A stretch of 50,152 nucleotides of DNA from the IMG/VR virus record IMGVR_UViG_3300018031_000009, positions 1 through 50,152 of that record; one strand, written 5' to 3'. Source of the DNA: a virus. Taxonomy: Duplodnaviria > Caudoviricetes. Position 1 is the stretch's first letter. Every line of letters begins with the position of its first letter. A program made the position numbers and the translations under genes. Below, piece by piece: positions 6,001-17,491 of the stretch. Below the pieces are notes generated by a model. That model made no database searches. It saw only the letters and a list, made by a program, of their open reading frames with translations, and was not told where the DNA came from.

Positions 6001-9000
6001 ACAACGCCCCCATCACCATCAACGGCGCGCGGCACGGCGGCAACATCTTCCTCAACGAGGCGTCCGACTCCCCGCACCTCCACACGTTCGGCCACGAGTT
6101 CGAGCACTTGATCGAGAGGGAGGCGCCCGACGTCCACAAGTGGTTCATCAGCGAGCTGGCGAAGTACGTCTCCCAGGAGCGGTATCTGGAGTTCATCGCT
6201 AAGTACGGCCCCCGCTATTTCAAAGGCGTCCTGGACGCACAGACCGGCGAACTGCGTCCAATGACGCCAGACGAGGCGCGCGAGTATTTCAAGAACAATC
6301 CCACCGCGCGCGGCGTCCTGCACAGCGAGTTCACCGCCGAGATAATGGGCGACTCGATGATGCAACAGGAGTTTTGGGACTACCTTGGGAGCCGCAATCC
6401 GTCGATGCTCCAGAGGGTCCTGGTGTTCCTGCGCCGGCTGGTCGAGCAGATCCGCCGCGCGTTCGGCGACGAGTCGCCGCGAAGCATGGACTACTACTTC
6501 AAAGACTTCGACCGCGTTGTGCAGCTCGCCGCCGAGGCGGCGCACCGCTTCCAGCAGCGCAAGGCGTGGCTGGGTGGCGAGACGCTGACCCAGGACCAGG
6601 TGTCGGAGGTGATCGACACCCTGCCGGCTGAGATAGTGGAGAGGGCGCTCGCCGGTGCCATCGTGCAGACGCAGCTCCAGCGACCGACGACGACCGTGGC
6701 GCCATCGCTTGGCGACCGAGCGCGCAACGTGGTTCGGACGATCGAAAACATCTTCGAGCCGCTGGGCAAACTGCCCGGCATTTCGGAGTTCCAGAAACGC
6801 CGCAACCTCGCCCAGGGCGCGATCTCGGCCATCAGCGATGCCGGGAAGGACCTGCACGCGGTTTTCACCGAGGCGACCGAGGCTGACGCCGCGGCGTCGT
6901 TCCGCTACCTCATCACCAAGGGCGCCGCCACGACGGTGATCGTCGACCCGAAGATCCGGGCGCACGCCGTAAAGGTGAAGGGCATGCTCGAGGGCGTGGG
7001 CGAACAGCTCGTCAAGGCCGGGATGCTCAAAAGGGAGACGTTCGAGAAGCGCCGTGGCGGCTACCTGCCGCAGCTCTACCTGCACTCGATTCTCTCCGAG
7101 TCCGACTACTCCCAGCTCGGCACCGGCAAGAAGCCCTCGAAGCTCGGCTATCTCAAGGCCCGCGGCTACGAGTGGGGCTTCGACGGCGATGGCGAGCTCC
7201 GCATCGTTGAGCGCAAGACCGGCAGGCCGGTCTCCGAGGACTGGATCACCCGCCACGGGCCGATCACCGACCCGGGCTACCTCACCGCCGTCGGCTTCAC
7301 GCGCGCGATGCGCGACCTGGCCTTACTCGACTGGTTCAACGACATCTCGAGGAACCGCGAGTGGGCGATGGAGAAGTCGCTGGTGCAGTGGGAGGGGCAC
7401 CGCGTCACCCCGTACTGGCTGCTCTCCGAGGCCGCGGATCTCCGTGCGCGGGCGTCCAAGACCGGGCCGGACTTCGCGAACCGCGTCAAGGTGCTCGACC
7501 TCGCCGGCCGGATGGAGGAGGTCGCCAACAGGGCGATCGGAGAGATCACGGTCTCGAGCGAGTGGATGCAGCTCCCGAATACCCGCCGCTATGGCCGCCT
7601 CCGCGGCATGGTCGTGCGTCGCGAAATCTACGACGACATTGTCGGCGTGGCGCACATCGTCCCGTCCGATGCCAGCCTTCCGGAAAAGATTTTCAGCTAC
7701 GGCGGCGTGGGCTCGAAGGTGACGGGCGTGTGGAAGCTGGTCAAGGTCCCGCTCAACCCGACCTCGCAGATTCGCAACTTCGTGGCGAACATGGTTCTGC
7801 TCAACCTCTCGGGGATGAGCTGGGTGCGGATCGCCCAGCGCATCGGCCAGGCCGCGAAGGAGATGCGGACCGGGGGCCGGCACTACCAGCTCTTCAAGCA
7901 GCGCGGCGGCTCGGCCAACACGTTCGCCGCGAACGAGCTCTACCAGATCGAGACGGAGATGCTCGACCTCCGGGCCAAGGCCAGCGGCCCCATGTCGCTC
8001 ATGCACTTCGCCGCCGTCGGCGCGAAGATCGTGAAGGGCGCCGGGGACTTTTATCAGGGCGTCGAGGCGCTGGGCAAGCTCGCGAAGTTCATCCACGAGC
8101 AGGAGAGTAACGAGGCTTCGGCCGACGACGCCATGCTCGAGGCGAACAAGTGGCTGTTCGACTACTCCCAGGTCGGCAAGACGCTGCGCTGGGCGCGCCG
8201 CGCGCCGATCGGCGCCCCGTTCCTGACTTTCACGATCAAAGTGCTGCCGCGCATCGTCGAGACGATGCTGCTGCACCCGCAGCGGATGATCCCCTATGTC
8301 GCCCTCGCCTGGGGGCTTCCCTACGCCATCGCCGCGCTGACCGGCGTTGACCCGGACGACCAGGAGGAGCTCAAGAAGCGCCTGCCCGAGCACTGGCAGC
8401 GCAAGGGCCACGTCTACATGCTGCCCTTCAAGGACGCGACCGGGCGCTGGCAGTTCGTCGACGTGTCGTACTACCTGCCCTGGTCGATGTGGCAGGAGGC
8501 GATCCACGAGCTCAAGAATGCCGAGCTGACTCAGGCCGCGAAGTCGCTGGGCCTGCTGTCCGGCCCGATCCCCGACCTGATGATTGCTGCGGCGACCGGG
8601 AAGGACCAGTTTACCGGCCGCGACATCGCCCCCGCGGGCGCGCCGCCGGACATCCAGTGGCTCGCCCGGCTGACCTACGTCATGGACATGGCCCTGCCGC
8701 CGATCATCTCGTCGCACGGGTTCGTGGGCATAGACCTCGGGGACCCGGTGAGCTGGATCTCCGGGAAGCTCACGGACGCCCTGAAAGAGAGCACTGCCCG
8801 CGGCGGCGAGCAGCGCACGACCGTAGGCCAGGCTGTCGCGGGCGCCCTCGGGGCCACCACGCGCGGCGTCGGCGAGGCCGACCTGGGCGCCAGGATCCGC
8901 CAGATGCGATTCGAGGTGAACGAGACGCGGAAGGAGCTGCGCCGGCAGCTCGCGGACCAGTCGCTCACGCCGGCCCAGCGCGAGAAGCTGACCCTCAAGT

Positions 9001-9077
9001 ACACCGACGAGATCATGCGCCGGCAGCAGAAGATCACCGAGCTGGTGGGCAAGGAATCGGCCGCCGAGGCGCGGTAG
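3..9077 (+). CDS. Giant polyvalent (DarB-like) virion/ejection protein, 5'-truncated by the window edge: LPD1 + amino-MTase + Strawberry-notch SF2 helicase + zincin-like peptidase + LPD38-like C-terminus
   Basis: Frame is open from base 3 (KTDFQKHAVALDGGKSDPYWSNDEEMFARAWE, LPD1-like). MTase motif I VLEPSAGVGG (~1404) and NPPF (1605-1616); Walker A GDGTGVGKGR (2412), DEAH (2835), YVSAT, QGFGRTHRTNQ; HEFEH (6093-6107) with downstream EFTAE; FDYS...PFLTF near the C-terminus. Confidence 0.85.
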   Translation, partial: KTDFQKHAVALDGGKSDPYWSNDEEMFARAWEGFVGDLLGKTRSVVGEEGPLRPAINNYLVNPAWSGDGRVKPPMYRGMPYPAGAERQRFATYFAALIKSLRWDDAKGFSVDAAAWEEARPKEQEAFEAAKKHYSDQADELLRLVEQERTAALQAKDQARQYELEEVRRRAEEARLAEEARNAPPPEQPQNAVLLDDEIDKLIDESIARTEEKKQEKPKEDVADAVRATDTARADAVKKTAGEIAAKAATEGVKGLDETMAGLVELFGGNALKSFPAGLDKETYAKAKPHFQKALEHFQAAGKAIKDFIDFIVTNFGAGIKPYLAFFIKEKNLTAGLGEQKKTSSSMRVAEVVAELLKTGKPFDERVLYSSMEMEFGGTAAEGKFTPKDAYDAMEMGVNLYVRSKRMSPTLQVALAVGDIAGLVRLVEQLPTQTRRTGETDEFQQFSTPPAYAYLVNWLANIKSGDQVLEPSAGVGGLAIFAEQAGGRLILNEYSARRAALLREMFPGRPMFTEDAAQLHNILPDDIRPGVVVMNPPFSSTAGRIEGHRDSAEGLQHISQALLMLADGGRLVVIMGEGINAPSRAAWWADVRKKYTVRANVTVSRDVYRKYGTTFPTVLVVIDKVGPHQGTTVTGDIAKLTDAPATLVNVRDSRGVAVEGQAPTTPVAPPADPIEQDKLPAPVEPAAPAEKSDVKIERAEIERALGAISDALYDPYSPQKVRVEGALPHAGKLVQSASMAAVEPPDPTHTPNLPEKTIKGFTIEVDGETIRGGISLAQLEAVVYAGQAHEQFLPGNIRRGFLIGDGTGVGKGREISAIILDNMRRGRKRAVWFSEKQTLVNDARRDFRDVGGDEKQIFNLTTEYEAGMPVRHKAGVLFSTYDTLRSGYQPIGRKPKKEKPGDEKLTPAEQAKAEAKKLAALQKKARIDQIVQWLGEDFDGVIVFDEAHNMANVLPEEGGMFGGDASLKAMAGLDLQKRMPQARILYVSATAATEVRNLVYGSRLGLWGEGTPFAGPANFVAEVEKGGVAVMEMVAQNLKALGLYIARSLSFDGVQHDTITHDLSEVQHDIYNEFARVWQGVLQNINEALNVTKATGSRAAAMKRSVFWAAHQRFFNSVLTSFAMPSVIEDAQKQLAAGHSPVFQLVSTGEAATERAVAKAEAAGEDLNDLDVTPMDSLIEFIMNAFPVQQFETTIGENGKPVQTPVYGSDGNSVINKEAQKMRDDLVKHLETIRQANPVPNPIDMVIEAFGEDNVSEITGRSRRFVRVRDEEGNYRMREEKRTDKMLSSDVKDFHNGKRQVLVFSNKGGTGVSYHASNTIKNKARRYHYLIQPGWRADQALQGFGRTHRTNQANAPFYKLVTTNVQAQKRFISSIARRLDQLGALTMGERRTGGRGLFSSEDNLESKYAVDALQVFFTDLNQGRTPFQIKALLTELGLAEKMNKDTGSINSQQVPITQFLNRLLSLTIERQNQVFEEYFARLDEIVENAKAQGTYDMGVEVIKALETKIERDEVAHRDERTKAEAKYVELELTLPQHFTSFENAKGQLYSMHDKAAGYFILRHHSKPDRVVALIDRGQRMNTKGQLVRRGLIIPVSGTPKYSDAIHDFGEAAEAEKGHSSKSVIRKIQGEKFEGGHMEEPFETSSGYVRRVGTGQISRVLDEKGREGVEAMLNEPGHDAGYRAAARKLWGRMQEYIKPGEVDRHFPRVSRIGGKKPSDADVPAVRAWLDNGPARILWEEETERTSPTYADRLHLITGAILPVWDRIHGHPRVVRTQTSDGRRLLGRAIHPKDLAATLKALGVASAAQNMPAAKIMERVLAGDRAILANGWELTMSRVSGEPRVEIKGPPSFLYGETKSLLKSQGVILERHGFSERAFVPVGDAAVLERITKGRPVVDLIQKGAEDANARTPGAPREPADDIDFALRFASDPRHVLEPDHESPRAPAELIDSLGRDLDRIAGLKPGASPPGTYMTAPLAVGIKEIARAMGVGGQVFGISTHNAPITINGARHGGNIFLNEASDSPHLHTFGHEFEHLIEREAPDVHKWFISELAKYVSQERYLEFIAKYGPRYFKGVLDAQTGELRPMTPDEAREYFKNNPTARGVLHSEFTAEIMGDSMMQQEFWDYLGSRNPSMLQRVLVFLRRLVEQIRRAFGDESPRSMDYYFKDFDRVVQLAAEAAHRFQQRKAWLGGETLTQDQVSEVIDTLPAEIVERALAGAIVQTQLQRPTTTVAPSLGDRARNVVRTIENIFEPLGKLPGISEFQKRRNLAQGAISAISDAGKDLHAVFTEATEADAAASFRYLITKGAATTVIVDPKIRAHAVKVKGMLEGVGEQLVKAGMLKRETFEKRRGGYLPQLYLHSILSESDYSQLGTGKKPSKLGYLKARGYEWGFDGDGELRIVERKTGRPVSEDWITRHGPITDPGYLTAVGFTRAMRDLALLDWFNDISRNREWAMEKSLVQWEGHRVTPYWLLSEAADLRARASKTGPDFANRVKVLDLAGRMEEVANRAIGEITVSSEWMQLPNTRRYGRLRGMVVRREIYDDIVGVAHIVPSDASLPEKIFSYGGVGSKVTGVWKLVKVPLNPTSQIRNFVANMVLLNLSGMSWVRIAQRIGQAAKEMRTGGRHYQLFKQRGGSANTFAANELYQIETEMLDLRAKASGPMSLMHFAAVGAKIVKGAGDFYQGVEALGKLAKFIHEQESNEASADDAMLEANKWLFDYSQVGKTLRWARRAPIGAPFLTFTIKVLPRIVETMLLHPQRMIPYVALAWGLPYAIAALTGVDPDDQEELKKRLPEHWQRKGHVYMLPFKDATGRWQFVDVSYYLPWSMWQEAIHELKNAELTQAAKSLGLLSGPIPDLMIAAATGKDQFTGRDIAPAGAPPDIQWLARLTYVMDMALPPIISSHGFVGIDLGDPVSWISGKLTDALKESTARGGEQRTTVGQAVAGALGATTRGVGEADLGARIRQMRFEVNETRKELRRQLADQSLTPAQREKLTLKYTDEIMRRQQKITELVGKESAAEAR

Positions 9078-9099
9078 GCGCGTCCCGCGCGCCCCGCGC

Positions 9100-9240
9100 G
9101 GAGCGTAAGTGCCTGATTACCCTGCCGTGTCCATTATAGTGGACATGCAGCGAGGTACTGGCAGTACATCGCCAGTCAGAAAAAACGCTATGTTTTTCTG
9201 ACAGTTATCTCTTGATGGTGGGCAGTTTTTTGACCGTTTC
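9100..9240. other. Putative attP region between the convergent polyvalent and integrase genes
   Basis: Lies at the int 3' end. IHF-like TAAGTGCCTGATT (9106-9118) and three inverted repeats: TGTCCA-N6-TGGACA, CGAGGTACTG-G-CAGTACATCG (9151-9171) and GTCAGAAAAA-N8-TTTTTCTGAC (9175-9202). Confidence 0.6.
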
Positions 9241-10185
9241 GACGAGACGTGCTGGGTAGAGGTGGGTGTATCTGCGCGTCGAGGCAAGCGATTGATGCGC
9301 CAGCGCGACGCCCACCTCGGCGAGCGTCGCGCCGCCGCTCAGGAGCGCGCTGGCGAAGCTGTGCCGGAGGTCGTGCGGCCGGACGTGCCGCAGGCCCGCC
9401 GTGTCTCGCGCGGCCCAGAACGCCTCGTAGTAGGCCGAGTCGGACCGCCGGAAGGGCAGGTAGGCGAGTGCCCAGCGCGCCGCCGGATGGACCGGGACCA
9501 TGTGCCGGACGCCGGTCTTGGCGATCCCGAGGTCTAGCCACGCCGCGCGCCCCTGGCGCACCACGGCGCCGGGCTCGAGCCGCAGGAGGTCCGACCGCCA
9601 GCGGAGCCCGGTGTAGAAGGCCAGCGTCCAGAGCGCCCGGTCCTCGGGCTCCATCGCCGCCATGAGGCGCTCGAGCTCGCCCGCGACCAGGTAGATGTGC
9701 CGCGCGTTGTTCGCCGCCGGCAGCCGCATGCGCGTCGCCGCAGCCCCGTCCCCGAGCCCGTGCTCCTTCCAGGCGTACCTGATGGACGCCCGGAGGTAGG
9801 CGAGCCGATTGCGCACGGTGCCGGGCGCGAGGGCGGGGTGCGCCGCGACGTACTGTCGGCAGATGTCGTGAAGTGCCGACATTGGCTTGCCCTGGAACCA
9901 GGGCAGGACGTGCGCGAGGTGCTGGGCGGCCTGTCGGCCGCCTTTTAGGTGCGGGAGCCGGTGCTCGATGTAGAGCGCGACCGCTTCGTCGATCGACGGC
10001 TCGTCGCGCTGGATCCCGGCCGCGATTGCCGTGAGGCGACCAGTCTCCACCCGCTCGAACTCGAAGGCTTGAGCTCGAGTCCACCCCGCAGGAAGCAGTT
10101 GATTGTGGCGGATACGTCGACCCGCGAGCGCGCGGCGTAGCTGGAATCGCCAACGCTTCTTTGCCTTGTCGAAATAGACCGGCAC
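9205..10185 (-). CDS. int: Tyrosine integrase
   Basis: Catalytic set TGLR, AKTG, HDLRH, LAH, RRYTH. Likely GTG start at 10185 (VPVYFDKAKKRWRF). Confidence 0.93.
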   Translation of the reverse strand: MPVYFDKAKKRWRFQLRRALAGRRIRHNQLLPAGWTRAQAFEFERVETGRLTAIAAGIQRDEPSIDEAVALYIEHRLPHLKGGRQAAQHLAHVLPWFQGKPMSALHDICRQYVAAHPALAPGTVRNRLAYLRASIRYAWKEHGLGDGAAATRMRLPAANNARHIYLVAGELERLMAAMEPEDRALWTLAFYTGLRWRSDLLRLEPGAVVRQGRAAWLDLGIAKTGVRHMVPVHPAARWALAYLPFRRSDSAYYEAFWAARDTAGLRHVRPHDLRHSFASALLSGGATLAEVGVALAHQSLASTRRYTHLYPARLVETVKKLPTIKR

Positions 10186-10331
10186 GCCGCTTTGAACGCC
10201 CTTACGTCCTGTTCCTCGAACTCTACCCGCCGCCCGATCCGTGTGCAAGCGAGCGGCCCGCGCGGCGCGGCGAGGTCGTAGACGGTCCTCGGCGCAACGC
10301 CGAGGATTTTCGCGGCGTCGGCGGCGGTCAC
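9945..10331 (-). CDS. xis: Excisionase / HTH_17-type recombination directionality factor
   Basis: TAADAAKILGVAPRTVYDL...RIGRRVEFEEQDV. GTG start overlaps the upstream TGA (GTGA); immediately upstream of int. Confidence 0.8.
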   Translation of the reverse strand: MTAADAAKILGVAPRTVYDLAAPRGPLACTRIGRRVEFEEQDVRAFKAACRSISTRQRSVGDSSYAARSRVDVSATINCFLRGGLELKPSSSSGWRLVASRQSRPGSSATSRRSTKRSRSTSSTGSRT

Positions 10332-10621
10332 TCGATGCCAGGCGCGAGGAACAGACACGTCGCCGGGAAGTCGCCTGCCTCGGCGCATACGCAGCTCACC
10401 TCGCTGCACGGCTCCGTGACCTCCCGCTCGATCAGCAGGCCGAGCTCAAGCGCCTTGCTCTGGACCGAGCCGCCGTCGATGTCGCCAGCGTATCCGTCGC
10501 CGCGCGCCTCTTTGAGGCACCACGCGCCAAACTCAGCAAGCGCCGCCTCGGTGCCCTCGGTCTCAACGAGCTTCTTCGCGGTTATAGGAGCGTCGGGCGG
10601 ACCAGGTAGGCTTGAATCCAT
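10328..10621 (-). CDS. Hypothetical protein with Cys cluster
   Basis: Stop is coupled to the xis start; EPCSEVSCVCAE motif. Confidence 0.55.
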   Translation of the reverse strand: MDSSLPGPPDAPITAKKLVETEGTEAALAEFGAWCLKEARGDGYAGDIDGGSVQSKALELGLLIEREVTEPCSEVSCVCAEAGDFPATCLFLAPGIE

Positions 10622-10860
10622 AACTGCACCTCATGTGCGACTGCGATGTAGGCGGCTGACGGCCGCAGATCGTTCTCCTGGCCCGGCCTGTAGGCTGCCC
10701 AGATCCTGTTTCGTAGCGCGCGTGGAAGCGTGAACCAATGCTTCAAGCAGCCCCACATCGCTGGCGGCACACGGGCCTCGCAGCCCGGCCAGTGGCACCC
10801 GTGTCCGCGCGATTGCCGTGCGGCCTTGACGTGCGCGACCTTGTCGCCGATCGAGGTCAT
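10582..10860 (-). CDS. Cys/His-rich putative Zn-binding phage protein
   Basis: CHWPGC...GCLKHW motif; TAATG coupling with the upstream gene. Confidence 0.7.
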   Translation of the reverse strand: MTSIGDKVAHVKAARQSRGHGCHWPGCEARVPPAMWGCLKHWFTLPRALRNRIWAAYRPGQENDLRPSAAYIAVAHEVQLWIQAYLVRPTLL

Positions 10861-11243
10861 TACGCTCGTCCGCTCCGTCTGTTGGAAGTCCCCCGGTCGG
10901 GGTGTTCGGTGAATCGCTCGAGGTGCCCGTCCAGTACGGGGCCTGGGGCGGCTTGCTGTTCGGTCGCGTGGTCTGTGACGACGCCGCGCTCGAGGTGGTA
11001 GGTCCTCACCACGACGCCGCCGGCCCGGCGCTCATCCGGGAGCTCCAGGTGGGCGCGCACCTTGGCGGCGAGCCGCATCATGGCGTCCGCGAGGTTCTTC
11101 TCCCGCGACCGCTCGCGCTGTCCGACGCAGCGGAGCCCCGTTGGCTTGTGGAGGAGGCGGCAACAGTTCTGGTGCTTGTTGCGGTACTGCCCGCCAGCCC
11201 CCGAGCCGCTGAACCAGGAGACCTCGACGTCATCGGGATTCAT
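10860..11243 (-). CDS. Stand-alone RF-1 (GGQ) peptidyl-tRNA hydrolase domain protein
   Basis: GSGAGGQYRNK, LLHKPTGL, RERSREKN and RTYH...VTDH...VLDGHL match class I release factor domain 3 plus the C-terminal segment. ATGA coupling at 11240-11243. Confidence 0.88.
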   Translation of the reverse strand: MNPDDVEVSWFSGSGAGGQYRNKHQNCCRLLHKPTGLRCVGQRERSREKNLADAMMRLAAKVRAHLELPDERRAGGVVVRTYHLERGVVTDHATEQQAAPGPVLDGHLERFTEHPDRGTSNRRSGRA

Positions 11244-11473
11244 GCGATCCAGTGGGGGTGGATCCACCGACGTTTATCGGTGTCGATGTTGCGGACGTAG
11301 ACACGTCCGCCGTACCCGTGCCGGATCACCGCGCCGGTGTGAAGGTGGCTGCCGAGCTCCCAGCTTATGCCGTCACCGACCGGGTAGAGGCGGCGCACCA
11401 GCGTCGAGAGCATGTCCTCGGCCGCGGAGACCGCGGCGAGTGCGCGGCGGACCGCGTCGGCCCGCGTCTCCAT
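11240..11473 (-). CDS. Hypothetical protein
   Basis: Start and stop overlap neighbours at both ends. Confidence 0.65.
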   Translation of the reverse strand: METRADAVRRALAAVSAAEDMLSTLVRRLYPVGDGISWELGSHLHTGAVIRHGYGGRVYVRNIDTDKRRWIHPHWIA

Positions 11474-11565
11474 CACTCCCCCGCGACCGCGTCGAGCGCG
11501 GCCTCGATCAACATACCGAAGCCGATCACCACGTCGTAGTAAACGGCCATAATCTTGTAGCGCAT
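11473..11565 (-). CDS. 30-aa peptide MRYKIMAVYYDVVIGFGMLIEAALDAVAGE
   Basis: TGATG overlaps at both ends. Confidence 0.5.
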   Translation of the reverse strand: MRYKIMAVYYDVVIGFGMLIEAALDAVAGE

Positions 11566-12212
11566 CACCGCGGCCTCGGGCCGGCGCGGTGCGCCTTGTT
11601 CGGCACGATCCTCCAGCCGTTTCGGTAGGCGGCCCAGACGGCGAAGTCGAGCTGCGCCGGAGTCATGCCCATCGTGTCAGCGATGTTCACGAAGATTTCC
11701 TCGAGCCGGACGTAGTTCTCACCGGCCGGCGGCGTGGTCTTGGGAATGGTGCGGAAACCCTGGTCCTTGAGAAATTTGAGGACGTGCGTGTCGAGCGCCG
11801 CGACCTTCGCCTCCGGGTTCACGAGCATGTAGAACCAGCGCGCGGTCTTCGGGCCGACGCCGGGGATTCCCTCCAGGAACTCCAGCGACCACGGGCGCGG
11901 GTCATCGCCGCCGGTGCGCCAGCCGGCGATGTACTCGAAAGCGCGCTGGATGCGGGTGTACTGGCCGGTGCGCGCCTCGCGCAGACAGACCCCCATGACG
12001 GCGCGGCATCTGAAGTCCTTGACGACGTCGAACGGCAAGCTGTTCACGCTCCAGTGGTATTTACTGAGGAACTCATTGAGCTTCCGCGCCGTGATCTCGG
12101 CCGGCTTGTTGGCGACCATGATGGCGAACAGCAACCACCACTGCGCGTTGTATACGGACTCCCCGGCGTCGCCGATGGCGTTCGCGGTGATCTTGTCGCC
12201 TGGCTCGACCAT
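11565..12212 (-). CDS. HhH-family DNA glycosylase/AP lyase (Ogg2-like)
   Basis: HhH motif LEGIPGVGPKTA with Lys; VAALDTHVL with Asp; IPKTTP...YVRLEE...AQLDFAVW resembles archaeal-type Ogg2. TGATG start at 12212. Confidence 0.8.
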   Translation of the reverse strand: MVEPGDKITANAIGDAGESVYNAQWWLLFAIMVANKPAEITARKLNEFLSKYHWSVNSLPFDVVKDFRCRAVMGVCLREARTGQYTRIQRAFEYIAGWRTGGDDPRPWSLEFLEGIPGVGPKTARWFYMLVNPEAKVAALDTHVLKFLKDQGFRTIPKTTPPAGENYVRLEEIFVNIADTMGMTPAQLDFAVWAAYRNGWRIVPNKAHRAGPRPR

Positions 12213-12418
12213 CAAAAGGACCCTCCTGGCTTCTTCACCCATCCCAGCATGCCCAACCTGGCCTCGAGGGCAGCCTGGTCGAGCGGGTTGTTGGCGTCCT
12301 CGTGCCCGAGGTAGAGGAACACCATCCGCGTCGTCTTGCTCGGCGAGCGAAAGGTGAAGGTGGTGGTGCCACTGACGACCGAGCACGTCCTCATCGAGGC
12401 GACTTCTCCGACTTTCAT
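12212..12418 (-). CDS. Hypothetical protein
   Basis: Coupled at both ends (ATGA/TGATG). Confidence 0.6.
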   Translation of the reverse strand: MKVGEVASMRTCSVVSGTTTFTFRSPSKTTRMVFLYLGHEDANNPLDQAALEARLGMLGWVKKPGGSF

Positions 12419-12657
12419 GTCTTCCTCCGTCGAGCCCGCATCCGCTGCGCGCCCGAGCTCCATGTGTCCGGTACGACCTCCTGGTGATTCTCTCCGGTCC
12501 TCGCTTCGGCGCGCACCGTCTTGCCTTCCAGGCGGATGCCGCGAAGGCGTGCGTCCTTGACGTAGGCCGCGATGCACTCCTCGATCGGCCGGTCGGTGCT
12601 GAACGTCCTGGTGTGGGCGCCATCCACGAAGAACGACACGTCGCGTGCATCTTTCAT
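12415..12657 (-). CDS. Hypothetical protein
   Basis: Coupled at both ends. Confidence 0.6.
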   Translation of the reverse strand: MKDARDVSFFVDGAHTRTFSTDRPIEECIAAYVKDARLRGIRLEGKTVRAEARTGENHQEVVPDTWSSGAQRMRARRRKT

Positions 12658-12902
12658 CAGTAGAGCGCGTCTCGAGTGATCTGCTCGATGAGCTGCTGCG
12701 CCAACTGGCGCGCGCGGGCCAGGCGCTCCTCCGCAACCATCGCGCGGGCCTCGGCGTGCGAGAGATCGCCGCGCAGTTCGCCGATAGCCTGATGAGCTAC
12801 GCGCCATTTATCGTCAAGCTCGGCGAGATCGGCGCGTAACTTCTGGGTCTCGAGCGCAACTCGTCTGTCGAGTTCATCCTCCCAGCCGGGGCTAGCAACC
12901 AT
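12657..12902 (-). CDS. Coiled-coil hypothetical protein
   Basis: Heptad-like LRADLAELDD...RLARARQLAQQL; coupled stop. Confidence 0.65.
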   Translation of the reverse strand: MVASPGWEDELDRRVALETQKLRADLAELDDKWRVAHQAIGELRGDLSHAEARAMVAEERLARARQLAQQLIEQITRDALY

Positions 12903-12903
12903 G

Positions 12904-13167
12904 TCAGTTCAGCTTCGTGGGATCCTGGGGGTTGTTCTCGGCGTCGTGACCGGCGCGAATAGCTGACAGCAGCGCCGACCCCTGCTCGCGCACTGTCTGG
13001 TAGGCGTGACCAAGGCACCCGAGGACCTGATAGCCGCCCGACCCGTCCTCGTTCCGCCACATCACCACGATGGCGTGCGATTGCTTGAGGAGCACGATCA
13101 GCTCGTCGATCGCCTTTTGTTCCTCTGTGGAGCCAGGCTCGAGCTGGACGTAGCTGCCTGTGTTCAT
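12904..13167 (-). CDS. Hypothetical protein
   Basis: ATGA coupling with the upstream gene. Confidence 0.6.
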   Translation of the reverse strand: MNTGSYVQLEPGSTEEQKAIDELIVLLKQSHAIVVMWRNEDGSGGYQVLGCLGHAYQTVREQGSALLSAIRAGHDAENNPQDPTKLN

Positions 13168-13346
13168 GCGCACTTCTCCCGGTAGAGGCGCTCCAGAAAA
13201 TCGGCCTGCCGGCCGGTGAGGACGGTGGTGTCAGCCTTGAGGGGGGTCATCTTTCGCACGAAGGCGCTCTGGTAGTCGTCCAGCTCGTCCTGGTCCACGC
13301 GCTCGAGCGCCTCGATCATTTCGGCGATGGAGACGGAGCGGGGCAT
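13164..13346 (-). CDS. Hypothetical protein
   Basis: YQSAFV...LTGRQADFLERLY motif; fits operon packing. Confidence 0.65.
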   Translation of the reverse strand: MPRSVSIAEMIEALERVDQDELDDYQSAFVRKMTPLKADTTVLTGRQADFLERLYREKCA

Positions 13347-13352
13347 TACGGT

Positions 13353-13499
13353 CTACGCCCCGCGGCGAACGGCGCGCTTCGCGCCGAGGGCGTTTGCGAT
13401 CCTTCGCCGCTGCGACAGCTTTGTGCGCGCGGTGCGCAGGCCCTTCCGCGCCTGGCGGCCACCGAGCTTCCGGCGTTCGGCCCTGGCGTTCACGTTCAC
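13353..13499 (-). CDS. 48-aa highly basic Arg/Lys-rich peptide
   Basis: MNVNARAERRKLGGRQARKGLRTARTKLSQRRRIANALGAKRAVRRGA; GTGA coupling. Confidence 0.55.
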   Translation of the reverse strand: MNVNARAERRKLGGRQARKGLRTARTKLSQRRRIANALGAKRAVRRGA

Positions 13500-13747
13500 T
13501 CCCCCGAGGAGAGCCGCAGCATCGTGAGGCGGTCCAAATATTTCTGCCACATCTCCATCTGGTAGGCGCACGCACGCGCCTCCGCGATTTTCGTGTGGTC
13601 GGTCTTGCCGGCGGCCTCGCGGATGTCGGCCCAGATCCGCACGAGCGTAGGCGCGAGGCGGTCGCGTCCGAGGAGGACGAACATCGGCTCGTCCGGGTGC
13701 GCGTTCGCGTAGCAGTCGAACGCGCCGGGGTTTGCTTTCGTGCCCAT
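13496..13747 (-). CDS. Phage hypothetical protein (DEPMFVLLGRD-type)
   Basis: AGGAG RBS; DEPMFVLLGRD...AP.LV.IWA motif. Confidence 0.75.
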   Translation of the reverse strand: MGTKANPGAFDCYANAHPDEPMFVLLGRDRLAPTLVRIWADIREAAGKTDHTKIAEARACAYQMEMWQKYLDRLTMLRLSSGE

Positions 13748-13769
13748 TTGTCTACTCCTAGTGAACAAA

Positions 13770-14216
13770 TCAGAACGGGATGTCGTCGTCCATATCGCCG
13801 AGCATGCCGCCGGTGGCGGGCTTCGGTGCGGGCTTCGGTGCCGCAGGCTGAACGCGCGGCGCTGGTTGTTCGTCGCCGGACTGCCGGCCGCCAAGGAGGA
13901 CCATGTTCGCGACGATCACCTCGACCGTGTAGCGGTCGACGCCGTTCTTGTCCTGCCACTTCCGGGTGCGGAGTTTGCCCTCGACGCAGACCGCGGCGCC
14001 CTTCTTGAGGTACTCGGCCGCGACCTCGGCGATCCGGCCGTAGAACACGAGCCGATGCCACTCGGTATGCTCCTTGTCCTCGCCGCTGGCCTTGTCCTTC
14101 CACTTCTCGGTCGTGGCAATGTTGACGTTGGTGACAGCGTCGCCGCTCGGCATGTACTTCGTCTCCGGGTCCTTCCCGCAGTTGCCGATCAGAATGACTT
14201 TGTTCAGGGAGGCCAT
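13770..14216 (-). CDS. ssb: Single-stranded DNA-binding protein
   Basis: [27 protein letters not shown] and C-terminal DDDIPF. Confidence 0.97.
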
Positions 14217-14228
14217 AGTAGTCCTTGA

Positions 14229-14432
14229 CTAGATTGAGACAAATTGGTAGTGGACGTGCTCCTCGTAGGCGAGGGCTCGTGTGATCTCGTGCGCGCGCAC
14301 CGCCGATAGCGGGCCGCCGCGCTCGACGTCTTGGGCAAGGGCATGCTGCCCGAGGTCGTGCAGCGCCTCGCGGATCTCTAAGGTCGCGAGACGCCCGGTA
14401 CGGCCCTTCGCGTGGGCAATGCGGCGGTTCAT
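14229..14432 (-). CDS. Hypothetical protein
   Basis: Fits operon packing; ATG start. Confidence 0.55.
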   Translation of the reverse strand: MNRRIAHAKGRTGRLATLEIREALHDLGQHALAQDVERGGPLSAVRAHEITRALAYEEHVHYQFVSI

Positions 14433-14434
14433 GC

Positions 14435-14498
14435 CGTGACCCCCAGCTCCGCGAGCTCCATCAGAACGTGACCCCCAGCTCCGCGAGCTCCATCAGAA
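14435..14498. repeat. Perfect 32-bp tandem duplication
   Basis: CGTGACCCCCAGCTCCGCGAGCTCCATCAGAA at 14435-14466 and 14467-14498. Confidence 0.95.
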
Positions 14499-14688
14499 TG
14501 CCGGCGCGGCGACGCGCCAGCTCGCCCAGGATGGGGCCGCGAGCCAGATCGCGGAGCTCCTCGTCAGCCGAGGAGCAACCGATTCTCACATCGAAGCCGC
14601 GCCCCTCGTGCATTGCGTCGATCGTGGCCGCGAGGCCCACGAGCTTCGCGTGGAGCGACAGGACGCGATCCAGGTTGGCGAACTTCAT
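14461..14688 (-). CDS. Hypothetical protein
   Basis: ATGA coupling with the upstream gene. Confidence 0.65.
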   Translation of the reverse strand: MKFANLDRVLSLHAKLVGLAATIDAMHEGRGFDVRIGCSSADEELRDLARGPILGELARRRAGILMELAELGVTF

Positions 14689-15065
14689 TTCGTCTTCTCC
14701 AGCGGAGCGGCGTGCATGGCCGGCGGGATGTACCAGGCTTGCTCGAACACCAGGCGCCGCATGTCTTCGAGGTGCGCCTTGATGGCGTTGATCGTCGGCG
14801 CCGCGTCCGGTTGCCCGGTCGGGCGCATGCCGGCCCCACAGAGGGCGTCGAGGAGCGTCTGGGCCACGCGCCTCTCGAGCGTCATGGTCGGCTGCGCCAT
14901 GTCGTCGCTCGCCGGCAGCGGCTCGAACACCGCTGGTGCGTAGCAGATCCGAAGGTCGCTGACCGGGTCACGCCGCGCGAATAGGATGTTCACCTCGCGC
15001 TCGAAATTCCTGATCTCGGCATACACCTCGATCGTGCCCTCGCTGTTGAGGCGCTGGAGCTTCAT
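14685..15065 (-). CDS. Hypothetical protein
   Basis: AQTLLDAL..AGMRP...HLEDMRRLVF motif; coupled at both ends. Confidence 0.7.
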   Translation of the reverse strand: MKLQRLNSEGTIEVYAEIRNFEREVNILFARRDPVSDLRICYAPAVFEPLPASDDMAQPTMTLERRVAQTLLDALCGAGMRPTGQPDAAPTINAIKAHLEDMRRLVFEQAWYIPPAMHAAPLEKTK

Positions 15066-15319
15066 TTCTTGCCCCCGTCCTTCTTTTCCTCTTCCGGCTG
15101 GTGAACGCCATTGAAGGCGTTGCGGATGTTCGCCGCGAAGTACCCGCCGATCGACTCTGCGCCGCAGCATGCGTCGTACTCCTTCTGGGAGACGCCGTCG
15201 TAGTGGTACAGGCGGCCGAGCTTGCCGTCCTTGCCCTTGAACCGGATCGCGAGGGTCTTCGTGCGCGGCTCGTAGCCGACCTCGGCGATGTTGCTGCTCT
15301 TGACTGGCTTCATGTCCAT
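15062..15319 (-). CDS. KTSC domain protein
   Basis: VKSSNIAEVGYE...LAIRFK...YHYDGV...SIGGYFAANIR; AGGAG RBS. Confidence 0.9.
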   Translation of the reverse strand: MDMKPVKSSNIAEVGYEPRTKTLAIRFKGKDGKLGRLYHYDGVSQKEYDACCGAESIGGYFAANIRNAFNGVHQPEEEKKDGGKK

Positions 15320-15329
15320 GATGGTTCTC

Positions 15330-15467
15330 CTAGATCAAAACGATGGTGACGGAAATCGCCGCCGCGAGAGCCAGGCAAAAGCCGAGGCCGGTGACGCTAC
15401 GGGATATGGCACAGGCGACTGGAAACGCCCACACGCCAGCGATGGCGATACCGAGTCCGAGGCTCAC
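15330..15467 (-). CDS. Small membrane protein with two hydrophobic segments
   Basis: MSLGLGIAIAGVWAFPVACAISRSVTGLGFCLALAAAISVTIVLI; GTGA coupling. Confidence 0.55.
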   Translation of the reverse strand: MSLGLGIAIAGVWAFPVACAISRSVTGLGFCLALAAAISVTIVLI

Positions 15468-16405
15468 TTGGACCTCGCGCGCGCTGCGACGGGATCGTTT
15501 ACGGCCACGAAGCCGGGGACGTTGAAAGCGGACTTCTGGGCGCCCGCGGTCTTGTTCAGCGCCGACTCGTCGAGCGAGAGGTAGGCGACCAGCTCTGGCC
15601 GGCTCTGAAGCTCGCGGGCGATCAAGCGAATCGCCTGGGCCGCGCCGATGCCGGTCTGAAATTGCGCTACCCACCGCTCGCGGGTGGTGAAGCCGGCGAC
15701 CTTCGTCGCCACGGTGGGCATGACGACGGTCGCGGCGCCGGCCTCGAGGACGGCATCCTGGGCGGCAGCCTCTCCGGCTGCCACAGCGTTCTCGGCGCGC
15801 TGCGTGGCGGAGGCGGCCTGGGCGGCGAGCCGGGCGACCTCAGACTTCTTCCCGGCCGCCTGTGCGACCTCCATGGCGGCCTGGGCGGCGGCGGCCTTCG
15901 CCAGCTCGGCCTTGCTTCTCTCCTCGGCGGCGGCCCGTAGGGCGGCGGCCTGGGCCTCGGCCTCGGCGCGGGCCTTGCGCTCGTTCTCCTCGTTCTGGCG
16001 CCGCACCAGCGCCGCGCGGTCCTCGAGCAGCTTCGTCCAGCCCTTGAGCCCGTCCTTGAGGAAGAGCTCGGCCCGGTCCAAGTGCTCCAGCGCCGGCTTG
16101 AACATGCCGCGGGCGTTCTCGATGATGAGCCGCGCCGGGGCTGTGATCGACCCTCGCATGTCCTCGATGCGAGTCCGTAGGGCGGCGATCGTCCGCAGCT
16201 CGGCGGCGGCTGACTCCGCGATCTCCTGGGAGTCGAACTCGTACGCCTGGGCGACCGCAAGAGTGCTGATGCCGGCGCGGATCAGCCCGAGAGCGTCCGG
16301 GCCTACGACCACGCGCGCGACGAGCGCGGTGGACTCGCTGTCGGGCTTCGCGGGATCCACAGTCAGGATCCGCTCGCGTTTGTCGTCGTCCGGTCCGAGT
16401 GGCAT
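15464..16405 (-). CDS. Coiled-coil protein of the recombination module
   Basis: IE..R..ITAP...FKP...L..AE..LK motif plus an Ala-rich helix; TGATG coupling. Confidence 0.75.
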   Translation of the reverse strand: MPLGPDDDKRERILTVDPAKPDSESTALVARVVVGPDALGLIRAGISTLAVAQAYEFDSQEIAESAAAELRTIAALRTRIEDMRGSITAPARLIIENARGMFKPALEHLDRAELFLKDGLKGWTKLLEDRAALVRRQNEENERKARAEAEAQAAALRAAAEERSKAELAKAAAAQAAMEVAQAAGKKSEVARLAAQAASATQRAENAVAAGEAAAQDAVLEAGAATVVMPTVATKVAGFTTRERWVAQFQTGIGAAQAIRLIARELQSRPELVAYLSLDESALNKTAGAQKSAFNVPGFVAVNDPVAARARSK

Positions 16406-16593
16406 CACTTGATCTCCAGCGCGTCTGCGTCCTGTGTCAGCGGCCGGACCTGTCCGGCGAACCAGATGCCGGTGCGCTTGGCCTCGAAGACCGTCTTGTC
16501 GCCGGTCGGCGTGACGGTCGTGGTGCGGTAGGACTCCCCGGTCGCGCAGCCGGCGAGGGCGAGGAGAGCGATCAGGATTGCGGCGGTTCTCAT
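16405..16593 (-). CDS. Small lipoprotein
   Basis: MRTAAILIALLALAG-C lipobox; coupled at both ends. Confidence 0.7.
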   Translation of the reverse strand: MRTAAILIALLALAGCATGESYRTTTVTPTGDKTVFEAKRTGIWFAGQVRPLTQDADALEIK

Positions 16594-16886
16594 GCGAGGC
16601 TCCTGGGGTTGAGAATTGCGAGCATCACTTCGCGCGCGCGGCTGTTGACGTCGGTGTCGGCAGCATAGATGAATTGCCCGATAACATTGGGCGCGAGCCC
16701 AAGGCGATGGCCGGCCCGCGCGGCATCGAGCTTGAGGTTGTCGACTCCAGCGTCGTAAATCTCGTTGTAAAGCGCGCACAACGGGCACTCGCCGCGCGAG
16801 TTGCGGATGCGGTTGAGGAGGTTCACATCCCACGGGCCGCGCTCGGCGATGATTGGCAGCAGGTCCAGAACGTCGTAGATCTTCAC
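16590..16886 (-). CDS. Hypothetical protein (CPLC motif)
   Basis: GTGA/ATGA coupling. Confidence 0.65.
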   Translation of the reverse strand: MKIYDVLDLLPIIAERGPWDVNLLNRIRNSRGECPLCALYNEIYDAGVDNLKLDAARAGHRLGLAPNVIGQFIYAADTDVNSRAREVMLAILNPRSLA

Positions 16887-17491
16887 GCGGCAGTCCTCCA
16901 TCGGTGCATGGCGACCGCGGCGAGAAAGACGGTGCGGTCCATCGCTGAAAAGAGCTTGCTGTTCGGGTTGTTGGACGACTCGTACTTGTACGTCCCATTC
17001 GCGTCGAGGCGCAGCGCGCCGCGCTCGTGAACGCGGGTCTCCGGCTCCTCGGACTCGATGAGGTATTCGTAGCCCGCGGTTTGGAGCCCGATGTTGCGGC
17101 CGGCGTAGAAGCTGCGCTTCGCGTCGACCACGGCGAGCCGGTTCGGCGCCTTGCGGAAGAAGCCGTCCAGGTCCGGCATGCCGGCAACGCGGATGCGATC
17201 GGAGTAACGCGCGCGTTCACAGAAGCGCGGGGTGAACCCGGTTTCGGAGCAGAACTTGAGCCAAGCCACGTAGCGCATCTCGAGCCACTCCGGCAGCAAC
17301 GCGAGGTCGAGGCGATTCTCGACGTCGAGCTGGATCATCTGGTGGATCGCGATGCCCTCGTCGCGCGCATGCGCGAGCCGGTCCGGCGGGATCTTCGAGT
17401 AGTCGGTGAGCGGCGCGAGGACCTGAGTGACGCTCGGAACGAGCGCGTCGCACCAGCGGTACTCGTGGCCGACTTCGGTGAAGGTCAGCAC
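16883..17491 (-). CDS. PD-(D/E)XK exonuclease (phage Cas4/RecB-like)
   Basis: HEY...VPSVTQVL, G.AIH, AGMPD, VVDAK, LQTAGY; lies near bet. Confidence 0.85.
   Translation of the reverse strand: MLTFTEVGHEYRWCDALVPSVTQVLAPLTDYSKIPPDRLAHARDEGIAIHQMIQLDVENRLDLALLPEWLEMRYVAWLKFCSETGFTPRFCERARYSDRIRVAGMPDLDGFFRKAPNRLAVVDAKRSFYAGRNIGLQTAGYEYLIESEEPETRVHERGALRLDANGTYKYESSNNPNSKLFSAMDRTVFLAAVAMHRWRTAA

Follow-up and report, generated by a model that had tools for sequence, protein, structure and literature searches.

To our knowledge, the rescue of ribosomes by GGQ proteins always involves a sensor, be it a codon reader, an ArfA-type adaptor, the tail of ArfB or the body of PrfH. Part of this picture of sensor dependence comes from passages of PMC6514570. 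ArfB (YaeJ) and mitochondrial ICT1, small GGQ proteins that stand alone and lack a codon reader, carry out codon-independent release on stalled ribosomes. PrfH (RFH), a member of the RtcB2-PrfH repair pair, is derived from a release factor, lacks domain 1 and presumably acts on ribosomes that are damaged or have stalled; it retains a domain-2/4 body. MTRFR (C12orf65), also a small GGQ protein without codon recognition, depends on a partner and has split large subunits as its substrate. Both PHROGs and the annotation of mycobacteriophages already list small phage "RF-1 domain" proteins; examples from cultured phages are gp204 of Mycobacterium phage ScottMcG and gp53 of Tunturiibacter phage Tunturi_4, with the groups phrog_3122 and phrog_20323. 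The literature that was searched, which lay mostly outside the subscription journals, yielded no experimental function for phage GGQ mini-factors, and none is given in the searched passages, which include parts of PMC6514570, PMC7824862, PMC5966550, PMC10732093, PMC3483164 and PMC9583779. The word "phage" does not occur in the searched text of PMC6514570, whose supplementary family lists may include such proteins.

Here we analyze a protein of 127 aa (P0001) encoded at 10860-11243 on the minus strand of a 50,152-bp phage record; this whole stretch is called the window. To judge from its sequence, the protein is a small, strongly conserved remnant of RF1 carried by a temperate phage, in which the GGQ part is kept and the stop-codon reader is lost. 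In the best reading, to which we give an even chance, P0001 is a codon-independent, ribosome-dependent peptidyl-tRNA hydrolase that sustains translation in infected cells.

Domain architecture and release-factor class

The coding sequence (10860..11243, minus strand; 127 aa plus stop) starts with an ATG at 11243 and ends with a TAA at 10862-10860, and its GC content at the three codon positions is coding-like (GC1 0.75, GC2 0.50, GC3 0.84). If translation began instead at a GTG at 11267, the protein would have 135 aa; the nearest homologues, P0002 and P0003, start where the ATG falls and not at the GTG. The window has a standard reading under table 11.

An earlier note, made from the DNA letters alone, had described a 127-aa protein with an intact GGQ, an ERS.xKN motif and an RTY...VTDH...VL.G.L segment, and all of these motifs were located (GGQ at residues 17-19, ERSREKN at 44-50, RTYH at 80-83, VTDH at 89-92 and VLDGHL at 103-108). 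The GGQ domain (RF-1, PF00472) covers residues 2-67 (11043..11240, minus strand) as a Pfam match and holds invariant columns in 39 homologues. Within it lie the codons of the catalytic tripeptide (11187..11195, minus strand), which is present in 202 of 203 family proteins, and the family signature GGQYRNKHQNCCR, residues 17-29. Residues 68-76 (11016..11042, minus strand) correspond in the alignment to E. coli RF1 to a shortened end of helix alpha-7 and the switch-loop region. They are followed by a domain-4 remnant, residues 77-112 (10908..11015, minus strand; VRTYH...VTDH...VLDGHLERF), which aligns to the C-terminal region of RF1/RF2, and by a mildly basic C-terminal tail, residues 113-127 (10863..10907, minus strand), where the last block of the structural model is of low confidence (pLDDT 55). 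The protein thus consists of RF1 domain 3 and a shortened domain 4, an architecture that we call type A. The architecture and the RF1 ancestry are shown by the sequence comparisons; that the protein works as a stand-alone, codon-independent derivative of a class-I release factor is in our judgement evenly balanced.

The alignment of P0001 with E. coli RF1 and ArfB bore out the statement of the note that domain 1, the PxT/SPF loop and an ArfB-type basic helix are absent: P0001 lacks domain 1, the ArfB-type tail and the whole of domain 2, PxT/SPF loop included. The protein begins at approximately RF1 residue 217, with nothing aligned to RF1 1-216, and unlike RF1 it therefore has no PxT stop-codon reader. 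What it shares with bacterial RF1 (PrfA) is the GGQ domain and the C-terminal motifs RTY..., V.DH and VL.G.L. The (near-)invariant residues G17, G18, Q19, N22, R29 and H32 are equivalent to G233, G234, Q235, N238, R245 and H248 of RF1. The stretch that follows the GGQ is different, being HVNTTDSAIR in RF1 and [HY]RNKHQNC[CV]R in the phage family. A metal site formed by H24/C27/C28/H32 was considered and is not supported; position 28 varies (C/V/L/I/A) in homologues.

Profile searches gave the same picture. The Pfam RF-1 profile (PF00472) matched P0001 with 59 bits (E 5.4e-16, residues 2-67; cut-off 35), and with 58.5 bits in a six-frame search of the record. The full-length factor profiles stayed far below their cut-offs, with 51.8 and 54.7 bits for RF1 (TIGR00019 and NF001859; cut-offs 423 and 400) and 52.2 bits for RF2 (TIGR00020; cut-off 370). 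P0001 has neither the domain 1 nor the PxT-bearing domain 2 of an RF1, and it lacks domain 2 and hence the SPF loop of an RF2. The NCBIfam prfA and prfB alignments reach profile positions 335/347 and 349/353, i.e. into the C-terminal region. The ArfB profile (NF006718; cut-off 100) reached 25 bits, over residues 40-74 alone; the long linker and basic C-terminal helix of ArfB are lacking, and the C-terminus of P0001 aligns to RF1 domain 4 instead. Over their 20 C-terminal residues, type A proteins have a median net charge of 0 (range -5 to +4), which indicates that a basic tail is not a conserved family feature; together with the alignment, this led us to reject an ArfB-like tail for the family. 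The PrfH profile (TIGR03072; cut-off 166.65) gave 34.7 bits. Unlike PrfH, type A proteins have no domain 2, and the window holds no match to RtcB (PF01139) anywhere in its 50,152 bp, so that a PrfH-style pairing with RtcB is absent and the remark of the note that no rtcB lies nearby holds for the entire record. The comparison with RF1, RF2, ArfB and PrfH by profile and structure, which the note had proposed, thus places P0001 nearest to RF1/RF2.

By definition, type A proteins are 100-170 aa long, have their GGQ among the first 35 residues and carry, towards the C-terminus, a domain-4 remnant of the pattern R-T-Y...D-H. P0001 agrees with this definition (127 aa, GGQ 17-19, R80, Y82, D91) and carries the type A signature GGQ[HY]RNKHQNC[CV]R. 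Types A, B and C were assigned by regular expressions, a rough procedure that left 56 of 203 proteins unclassified, many of them type C. The longer members (type C) have the same signature and retain an RF1-type PPT loop (...QRVPPTE..GRVHTS); they score 131-198 bits as RF1, compared with 53-115 bits as RF2 and 33-53 bits on the PrfH profile. The fact that these longer members keep the PPT loop and score as RF1 indicates that the family is a reduction series of RF1 and is derived neither from ArfB nor from PrfH.

The RF1 ancestry, and the possibility that the longer members with their PPT loop may still read stop codons, could also speak for a modulator of normal termination, which competes with or aids host RF1/RF2 at stops or titrates PrmC, the RF methyltransferase, for instance so that read-through or termination is adjusted at phage genes. 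In RF1, PrmC has the GGQ loop as its substrate, and the fold matches of P0001 include 2b3t, the complex of RF1 with PrmC. We consider such a role very improbable: the type A proteins are without any decoding loop, and no link to recoding is seen in a window that is normal under table 11. The decoy for PrmC that the note had envisaged finds nothing in its favour, and for a decoy the conservation of the invariant residues in the region of the catalytic helix and of the domain-4 motif would be needless.

The AlphaFold model of P0001 (mean pLDDT 83, pTM 0.57) predicts a GGQ domain of three strands and a long helix (residues 47-66) and has a pLDDT of about 90 at residues 81-110; the geometry between the domains is uncertain in this model, as the pTM indicates. 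The top matches in both sequence and fold are RF1/RF2, and among the matches listed in a Foldseek search against the PDB every one with E <= 0.001 is a chain of RF1, RF2 or mitochondrial RF1. Relative to E. coli RF1, P0001 has two 6-residue deletions, one in helix alpha-7 and one in the switch loop; a gapped HMMER alignment to the PDB chain of E. coli RF1 places gaps of 7 and 2 residues in the same region. Since alpha-7 and the switch loop are together 12 residues shorter than in RF1, the domain-4 remnant may not reach the decoding centre.

An alpha-7/switch loop so short that it may not extend as far as the decoding centre of the 30S subunit is also what could be expected of a factor like MTRFR (C12orf65), which would hydrolyze peptidyl-tRNA on split 50S subunits and not on the 70S ribosome. 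P0001, likewise small and with a GGQ but no decoding parts, has weak matches to C12orf65 structures (sequence E 1.6e-4 and 8e-4; Foldseek rank 50). This explanation is nevertheless quite unlikely, as P0001 is far nearer to RF1/RF2 than to C12orf65. Moreover, it retains a conserved remnant of domain 4, which in RF1/RF2 is part of the superdomain on the 30S side, and no partner resembling MTRES1, nor the bacterial RqcH or RqcP, is encoded nearby.

Size, distribution and conservation of the family

The family is large, widespread and mostly viral. It was found in 343 IMG/VR contigs, in 354 metagenome stretches and at 24 loci in 185,579 species genomes, and the Atlas clusters nearest to P0001 contain 68-93% viruses among the members with known taxon. 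Near-identical DNA is absent from GenBank phages. Among 50,697 GenBank phage records no close type A relative was found; the top matches, with 32-34% identity, are full-length RF genes. Most protein matches in this collection come from records that are unannotated or resemble bacterial DNA, and they represent full-length RF1/RF2 genes and not phage mini-RFs. The RF-1 proteins of cultured phages belong to the same broad HMM family as P0001. At 115-118 aa they share its GGQ domain and carry a related motif behind the GGQ (GGQNRNKRDTAVR, GGQHRNAKQNGVR), but in place of the RF domain-4 remnant they end in a type B C-terminus, F..WL...NLK.E. The PHROG mini-RF profiles match P0001 over residues 1-66 only. 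Beyond the earlier note are the conserved domain-4 remnant, the derivation from RF1, the widespread, mostly viral family and its prior cataloguing in PHROGs and mycobacteriophage annotation.

An alignment of 39 sequences has 15 invariant columns at a mean column identity of 35%. R21, N22, K23, H24, Q25, N26 and R29 are invariant in all 39 homologues; in the domain-4 remnant of the 39 type A proteins R80 and Y82 are conserved to 100% and D91 to 92%. The median dN/dS across 221 pairs is 0.10 (range 0.017-0.49), a pattern of substitutions which indicates that the family is under purifying selection.

These values bear on the suggestion that P0001 is the non-functional leftover of a captured prfA gene, a decayed fragment under relaxed selection as the note had put it. 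The protein is indeed a truncated RF1, and the sequence immediately before it may contain a weak PxT-like relic in the same frame: with 4 of 6 type C proteins as queries, the tblastn match continues in frame as far as 11354, onto R-Q-P-P-S-H-R-R-G. This stretch crosses one stop codon, with a second in-frame stop just upstream of the motif; the GC3 of its frame is 0.51 compared with about 0.87-0.88 in the 78-aa ORF that occupies this region, a six-frame translation of the window contains the pattern two times, and no such relic is present in L107, the closest relative with flanks. An upstream relic of the PxT loop is hence unproven from these sequence data. The low dN/dS, the 15 invariant columns, the occurrence in hundreds of viral contigs with GC contents from 37% to 68%, the intact frame and the coding-like codon-position GC all argue against decay, and we regard a mere leftover as extremely improbable.

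Genomic setting and linkage to tRNA genes

The gene lies in a block on the minus strand with the order repressor-like gene, RecT, exonucleases, SSB, HhH-GPD-like protein, GGQ gene, excisionase, integrase. This agrees with the early operon proposed in the note, and a placement among integration, excision and recombination genes fits the annotation. Within the leftward early block the gene is on the int side, where lambdoid phages harbour accessory host-modulating genes. Upstream, a 78-aa ORF without family match (11240..11476, minus strand; GC3 about 0.87-0.88) has a stop that overlaps the start of the GGQ gene (ATGA). Downstream, a Cys/His-rich 92-aa ORF (10582..10860, minus strand) belongs to phrog_18063 (E 1.5e-30), and its start overlaps the GGQ stop (TAATG). 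A programmed frameshift from the 78-aa ORF into the GGQ ORF was rejected, as the 78-aa product has no RF similarity. A scan for promoters and terminators between 9000 and 20600 gave a result no better than shuffled sequences.

Neither flanking ORF is conserved beside any homologue examined. In an all-against-all ORF comparison between the window and 79 related IMG/VR loci, no family was common to the neighbours in the window and those in the 79 loci; the commonest neighbour, setting aside artefacts from frames overlapping the GGQ gene, occurs at 21 of the 79. None of 104 further genome and metagenome loci shares a neighbour with the window, save for one terminase-like match distant from the gene. 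A fixed partner protein was therefore rejected, and since no protein-coding neighbour is conserved, the factor probably acts without a phage partner.

New here is that type A relatives are typically embedded in phage tRNA arrays. Within 711,520 bp of IMG/VR loci there are 577 tRNAs, distributed over 56 of 80 loci, and a tRNA lies at most 500 bp from the gene at 44 of 76. The median distance between gene and tRNA is 8 bp (53 loci with tRNA), and in 51 of these 53 all tRNAs are co-oriented with the gene. Five of five whole records (166-374 kb), picked from tRNA-rich loci, have the gene inside the single main tRNA array. After clustering at 70% identity a tRNA is present no more than 1 kb away in only 10 of 21 clusters, which means that the counts per locus are inflated by redundancy; in loci of at least 3 kb from cellular genomes the linkage is weaker (6/20). 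Adjacency to an array is thus typical but not universal for type A, and the copy in the window is not embedded in one: the window's sole tRNA, a tRNA-His at 25847-25921, lies at a distance of 14.6 kb.

The embedding of relatives in phage tRNA arrays indirectly favours, among the roles that the note had listed, a codon-independent rescue that supports translation. It also bears on an arrest factor, which would cause premature release of nascent chains on elongating host ribosomes, as a tool for host shut-off or as an abortive-infection or exclusion toxin of the prophage. The lack of any module for codon or mRNA-channel selectivity is compatible with such a factor, and so is the accessory int-proximal position in a temperate phage, a region in which exclusion and host-modulating genes are common. 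Genes that lie within phage tRNA arrays, and in the same orientation, argue for support rather than for a block of translation. There is also no adjacent conserved immunity or antitoxin gene, and a codon-blind terminator would hit phage mRNAs equally. Together, these points make an arrest factor unlikely.

Proposed role in infected cells

The preferred role as a hydrolase that sustains translation would resemble codon-independent release by ArfB and ICT1. The relatives are mostly inside tRNA gene clusters, so the factor probably frees stalled ribosomes during infection. For P0001 we infer binding to the ribosome, hydrolysis, the choice of substrate and the benefit to the phage. The protein would enter the vacant A site of a halted ribosome with peptidyl-tRNA in the P site and place its GGQ in the peptidyl-transferase centre in the manner of RF1, whereupon the peptidyl-tRNA would be hydrolyzed. 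Because it has neither a codon reader nor the mRNA-channel probe of ArfB, its selectivity would come mainly from competition: the ternary complex would shield elongating ribosomes, and targets would be ribosomes with a lasting empty A site, e.g. on cleaved mRNA or where the loss of tRNA has left codons hungry. Such jams could arise from host defences that target tRNA or mRNA, or from degradation of host RNA by the phage. The protein would then be an accessory factor that keeps translation running early in infection, and in most relatives it would be co-transcribed with the phage's own tRNAs.

In favour of this role, all known recognition modules are missing, yet the protein is under strong selection (dN/dS 0.10; R80 and Y82 invariant). 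Against it stand the distance of 14.6 kb between the copy in the window and its nearest tRNA and the lack of a sensor for an empty mRNA channel, as a codon-blind factor could harm phage translation too. With its 12-residue shortening, the domain-4 remnant may also fall short of the decoding centre.

As a wider and more tentative possibility, which we would not expect to hold in full, phages may on repeated occasions have trimmed RF1 in steps, first to domains 2-4 with a PPT loop, then to domains 3-4 and then to domain 3 with a new tail. This may have yielded a new class of stand-alone A-site factors, devoid of both codon reader and mRNA-channel probe and with purely kinetic selectivity, which end translation on ribosomes idling at sense codons and reside in tRNA arrays as the second half of a counter-measure to tRNA-targeting immunity. 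That phage tRNAs counter tRNA-cleaving immunity is a theme of PMC10264068 and PMC11555353; in the passages of these papers that were searched the term "release factor" is absent. If the proposal is true, a protein component would be added to this picture: phage tRNAs would refill the pool, and the mini release factor would unjam the ribosomes that are already stuck, a counter-defence acting on the ribosome itself. A conserved, virus-specific GGQ factor without a sensor would, if true, represent a new way of substrate choice, and its gene inside a tRNA array would be a simple genomic marker for phages that invest in the maintenance of translation.

Sequence and structure of the mini release factor

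The GGQ protein of the window (P0001, 127 aa) is encoded on the minus strand from an ATG at 11243 to a TAA at 10860. All motifs listed for it in the earlier note are found in the translated ORF: GGQ at residues 17-19, ERSREKN at 44-50, RTYH at 80-83, VTDH at 89-92 and VLDGHL at 103-108. The codon-position GC of this frame is coding-like (GC3 0.84, GC2 0.50). Both ends of the ORF overlap a neighbour: upstream, the ATG shares an ATGA with the stop of a 78-aa ORF, and downstream the TAA shares a TAATG with the start of a 92-aa ORF.

The Pfam RF-1 model matches residues 2-67 with 59 bits (cut-off 35). The NCBIfam models of RF1 and RF2 cover residues 2-112/113 at profile positions 212-335 of 347 and 225-349 of 353, with scores of 52-55 bits that lie far under the cut-offs of 370-423; the PrfH model gives 34.7 bits (cut-off 166.65) and the ArfB model 25 bits (cut-off 100). 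PHROG mini release factor profiles reach only residues 1-66. Alignment with E. coli RF1 (RF1 and ArfB were taken from annotated K-12 regions) matched P0001 to the part of RF1 that begins at about residue 217 and ends near the C-terminus, i.e. to domain 3 plus the C-terminal strands and helix of domain 4, with two 6-residue deletions, one at the end of helix alpha-7 and one in the switch loop. No residues of P0001 aligned with domain 1 or domain 2 of RF1, and the ArfB tail had no counterpart in the alignment with E. coli ArfB; the claimed absence of domain 1, of the decoding domain and of an ArfB-type tail is thus borne out. An AlphaFold model built with 39 homologues had a mean pLDDT of 83 and a pTM of 0.57. 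Among the Foldseek matches listed from the PDB, every one with E <= 0.001 was an RF1, RF2 or mitochondrial RF1 chain; C12orf65 occurred only at rank 50.

The GGQ module serves in the ribosome-dependent hydrolysis of P-site peptidyl-tRNA. This catalytic module is intact in P0001, as are the residues aligning to N238, R245 and H248 of RF1, and the known substrate-recognition modules are all missing. From this combination we infer a codon-independent release factor, and we consider it likely that the protein is a ribosome-dependent hydrolase without codon recognition. The observations of the earlier note are confirmed, and its interpretation is supported in part.

Distribution, selection and architectures of the family

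A word-indexed search of proteins of 69-223 aa found 54 small homologues of P0001. The alignment of 39 of these small proteins contains 15 invariant columns, from which we derived the signature GGQ[HY]RNKHQNC[CV]R (RF1 equivalent GGQHVNTTDSAIR); GGQ itself is kept in 202 of 203 stored family proteins. A profile search against 1.84 billion cluster representatives resulted in 10,690 matches with E <= 1e-3, 2,745 with E <= 1e-10 and 37 with E <= 1e-30, and 148 of the 150 best matches were shorter than 240 aa. Scans with back-translated patterns, which are limited to members still carrying the signature, gave 375 candidate stretches in IMG/VR, of which 343 were confirmed; in metagenome contigs 354 of 515 were. 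In species genomes (one each of 185,579) only 24 of 48 candidates were confirmed, mostly on MAG contigs from many phyla. GC content spans 37% to 68% among the viral loci retrieved. In the ESM Atlas the nearest clusters consist of RF-1-domain proteins 123-131 aa long and are 68-93% viral among members with known taxa.

Selection was estimated by the Nei-Gojobori method from 180 homologous ORFs and the window, using pairs with dS between 0.05 and 1.5. The median dN/dS was 0.10 (range 0.017-0.49, 221 pairs); a subset of 35 non-overlapping pairs spanned 0.04-0.49. For the window and L107, its closest flanked relative, the value is about 0.31, with dS near saturation (1.25). Relaxed selection, by which the earlier note would have recognised a decayed prfA fragment, is therefore not seen, and together with the size and the invariant columns of the family this leads us to reject such a fragment.

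The signature is shared by three forms, types A, B and C, a rough classification made by regular expression. Type C proteins (about 150-232 aa) retain the RF1-type segment ...GGHR.QR.PPTE..GRVHTS..., with PPT as PxT loop, and the full switch loop. All six tested scored higher with RF1 (131-198 bits) than with RF2 (53-115) or PrfH (33-53). In four type C proteins (P0127, P0136, P0157 and P0164) the N-terminus lies at the start of domain 2. Longer members of 217-232 aa, represented by these four and the ORF at L085:5824-6387, are RF1 without domain 1; with the PPT form of the loop and the phage signature following GGQ, members of this length might still read stop codons. One of them lies on a Rhodovibrio sodomensis genome scaffold.

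Type A, the form of the window, consists of domains 3 and 4 and nothing else. Across 39 type A proteins R80 and Y82 never vary and D91 is conserved in 92%, so that the remnant of domain 4 is under constraint; the median net charge of the last 20 residues is 0, and hence there is no ArfB-like tail. Given the short alpha-7/switch loop and the uncertain inter-domain geometry of the model, this remnant may not reach the decoding centre. For this reason an action on the large subunit, as in MTRFR, is kept as a rival reading.

Type B (about 115 aa) has an unrelated C-terminus in place of domain 4. The members found in cultured phages were of this type only, i.e. Mycobacterium phage ScottMcG gp204 and relatives and Tunturiibacter phage Tunturi_4 gp53; the two named proteins are annotated as 'RF-1 (domain) peptide chain release factor'. 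The 50,697 GenBank phage records contained no close relative of type A; there the best matches to P0001 and its homologue P0005 were stretches of 32-34% identity, inside full-length release factor genes where annotated. The simplest reading of these sequences is that types C, A and B form a reduction series from RF1, a direction which we infer.

Upstream of the GGQ ORF, at 11268-11354 on the minus strand, the window translates in the same frame, with a stop codon between, into R-Q-P-P-S-H-R-R-G, at the spacing of the type C motif R-V-P-P-T-E-R-R-G; a second stop closely precedes the motif. The resemblance may be what is left of the decoding loop, or it may have arisen by chance in a GC-rich off-frame.

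Linkage to tRNA arrays

No conserved protein-coding neighbour of the mini release factor genes was found; tRNA genes recur instead. In 80 IMG/VR loci (the gene plus or minus 5 kb) aragorn detected 577 tRNAs in 711,520 bp, with at least one in 56 loci. ORF boundaries were defined for 76 loci, 53 of which contain tRNAs; in these the nearest tRNA is at a median distance of 8 bp, and 51 of the 53 have all their tRNAs on the strand of the mini release factor. A tRNA occurs within 500 bp in 44 of the 76. Locus counts are inflated by related phages; at the level of 70%-identity protein clusters, tRNAs are present in 12 of 21 and within 1 kb in 10 of 21. Metagenome loci of at least 3 kb, which come partly from contigs shared with IMG/VR and are not fully independent, have tRNAs in 22 of 45 cases (within 500 bp in 16), and 203 of 220 tRNAs share the strand. 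The linkage is weaker in cellular genomes (6 of 20 loci).

As a control we used five whole records of 166-374 kb, picked for many tRNAs near the gene. They contain 26-46 tRNAs each (Rfam); among the 150 matches listed (11 more exist) there is one array per record, with single strays in three records, and the gene lies within the main array in all five. In a contrast set of five records with zero or one tRNA within 5 kb, three have 9-33 tRNAs at 7-26 kb from the gene; a fourth has its single tRNA at about 0.9 kb, and the fifth, which is 54% complete, lacks tRNAs.

The unit tRNA-Met(cat), mini release factor, tRNA-Arg(tct) recurs in 13 loci (L028, L030, L031, L033, L034, L039, L041, L048, L051, L058, L060, L062 and L076); tRNA-Arg(tct) is likewise directly downstream in L046 and L075. 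Several protein genes of tRNA-rich phages are repeated neighbours, not universal ones: a dual-specificity-phosphatase-like protein (21 of 79 loci), a 194-aa protein without Pfam match (17 loci), an AAA_33 P-loop kinase (10 loci), an RNaseH-like PF04308 protein (10 loci) and a radical SAM protein (9 loci). Examples of these neighbours are at L065:48-560, L009:2998-3468, L063:2965-3432, L072:8284-9831 and L075:2811-3395. The kinase and the phosphatase could hint at RNA end-healing.

The window phage and the proposed role

The window copy is an exception to this linkage. The record (50,152 bp, GC about 66%) looks complete, with a CheckV estimate of 91%, and is a tailed temperate phage whose terminase, portal and major head genes occupy 38-48 kb, with a primase/helicase at 21 kb. 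Its only tRNA, a tRNA-His (GUG) at 25847-25921 on the plus strand (Rfam, 58.4 bits), is 14.6 kb from the mini release factor gene; it lies inside mechanically called high-GC3 ORFs on both strands (25508-26026, plus; 25265-25918, minus).

The GGQ gene is part of a single minus-strand block that starts with a repressor-like gene (19338-19715) and continues with RecT, two exonuclease-like genes, SSB, small ORFs, an HhH-GPD-like protein, the 78-aa ORF, the GGQ gene, a phrog_18063 protein, excisionase and integrase. Its gene order is typical of a leftward early operon, and the earlier note is right to speak of an early operon; the statement there that no rtcB is nearby also holds, since the whole record has no RtcB match. 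The int-proximal end of such an operon is the site of accessory genes in lambdoid phages. Promoter and terminator scans of 9000-20600 were uninformative.

The phrog_18063 protein (10582-10860, minus; 92 aa, Cys/His-rich, E 1.5e-30, unknown function) is translationally coupled to the mini release factor stop and was found beside none of the homologues. The HhH-GPD-like protein (11565-12233, minus; phrog_11575, E 8.7e-37) has a weak Ogg-HhH match under the cut-off and is possibly a DNA glycosylase-like accessory gene. A single plus-strand ORF of 2,999 aa (78-9077, GC3 0.92) ends just short of the integrase; its residues from about 409 to 634 are DNA-methyltransferase-like (phrog_9133, phrog_6263), helicase-like motifs and an HExxH motif are visible by eye, and the product may be a giant multi-domain protein of the anti-restriction type. 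A 170-aa protein encoded with the rightward early genes (22528-23040, plus; phrog_4786, E 9.5e-34) carries the label 'cysteine dioxygenase', an unusual annotation in a phage.

GGQ rescue and release factors are a known kind of protein, and small phage 'RF-1 domain' proteins are already catalogued in PHROGs. Passages in the literature list such a protein in the cluster C mycobacteriophage McGee (PMC9583779) and mention one in Pseudomonas phage PA73 (PMC3483164). Morgado and Vicente describe that some tRNA arrays of mycobacteria and mycobacteriophages contain an RF-1-domain CDS, Pth and tmRNA, and they suggest extra rescue factors (PMC5966550). The main text of a review on release factor evolution gives RF1, RF2, ArfB and RFH as the bacterial forms, with 0 occurrences of 'phage' (PMC6514570). 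No functional study of a phage GGQ mini-factor was found in the searchable literature, in which the type A architecture, the descent from RF1, the viral specificity and the general embedding in tRNA arrays appear to be undescribed.

[quoted passage not shown] Further rivals to this explanation are a shut-off toxin and a modulator of termination. A role in maintaining translation fits the presumed co-transcription of most relatives with phage tRNAs and the early-operon position here. It also matches ideas in the phage-tRNA papers and the general argument of a jumbo-phage review, whose passages name PTH2 and Pth1 and no RF-1-domain protein (PMC7824862). We regard the explanation as a whole as evenly balanced between right and wrong: the mini release factor would keep translation running in the infected cell while host tRNAs or mRNAs are cut.
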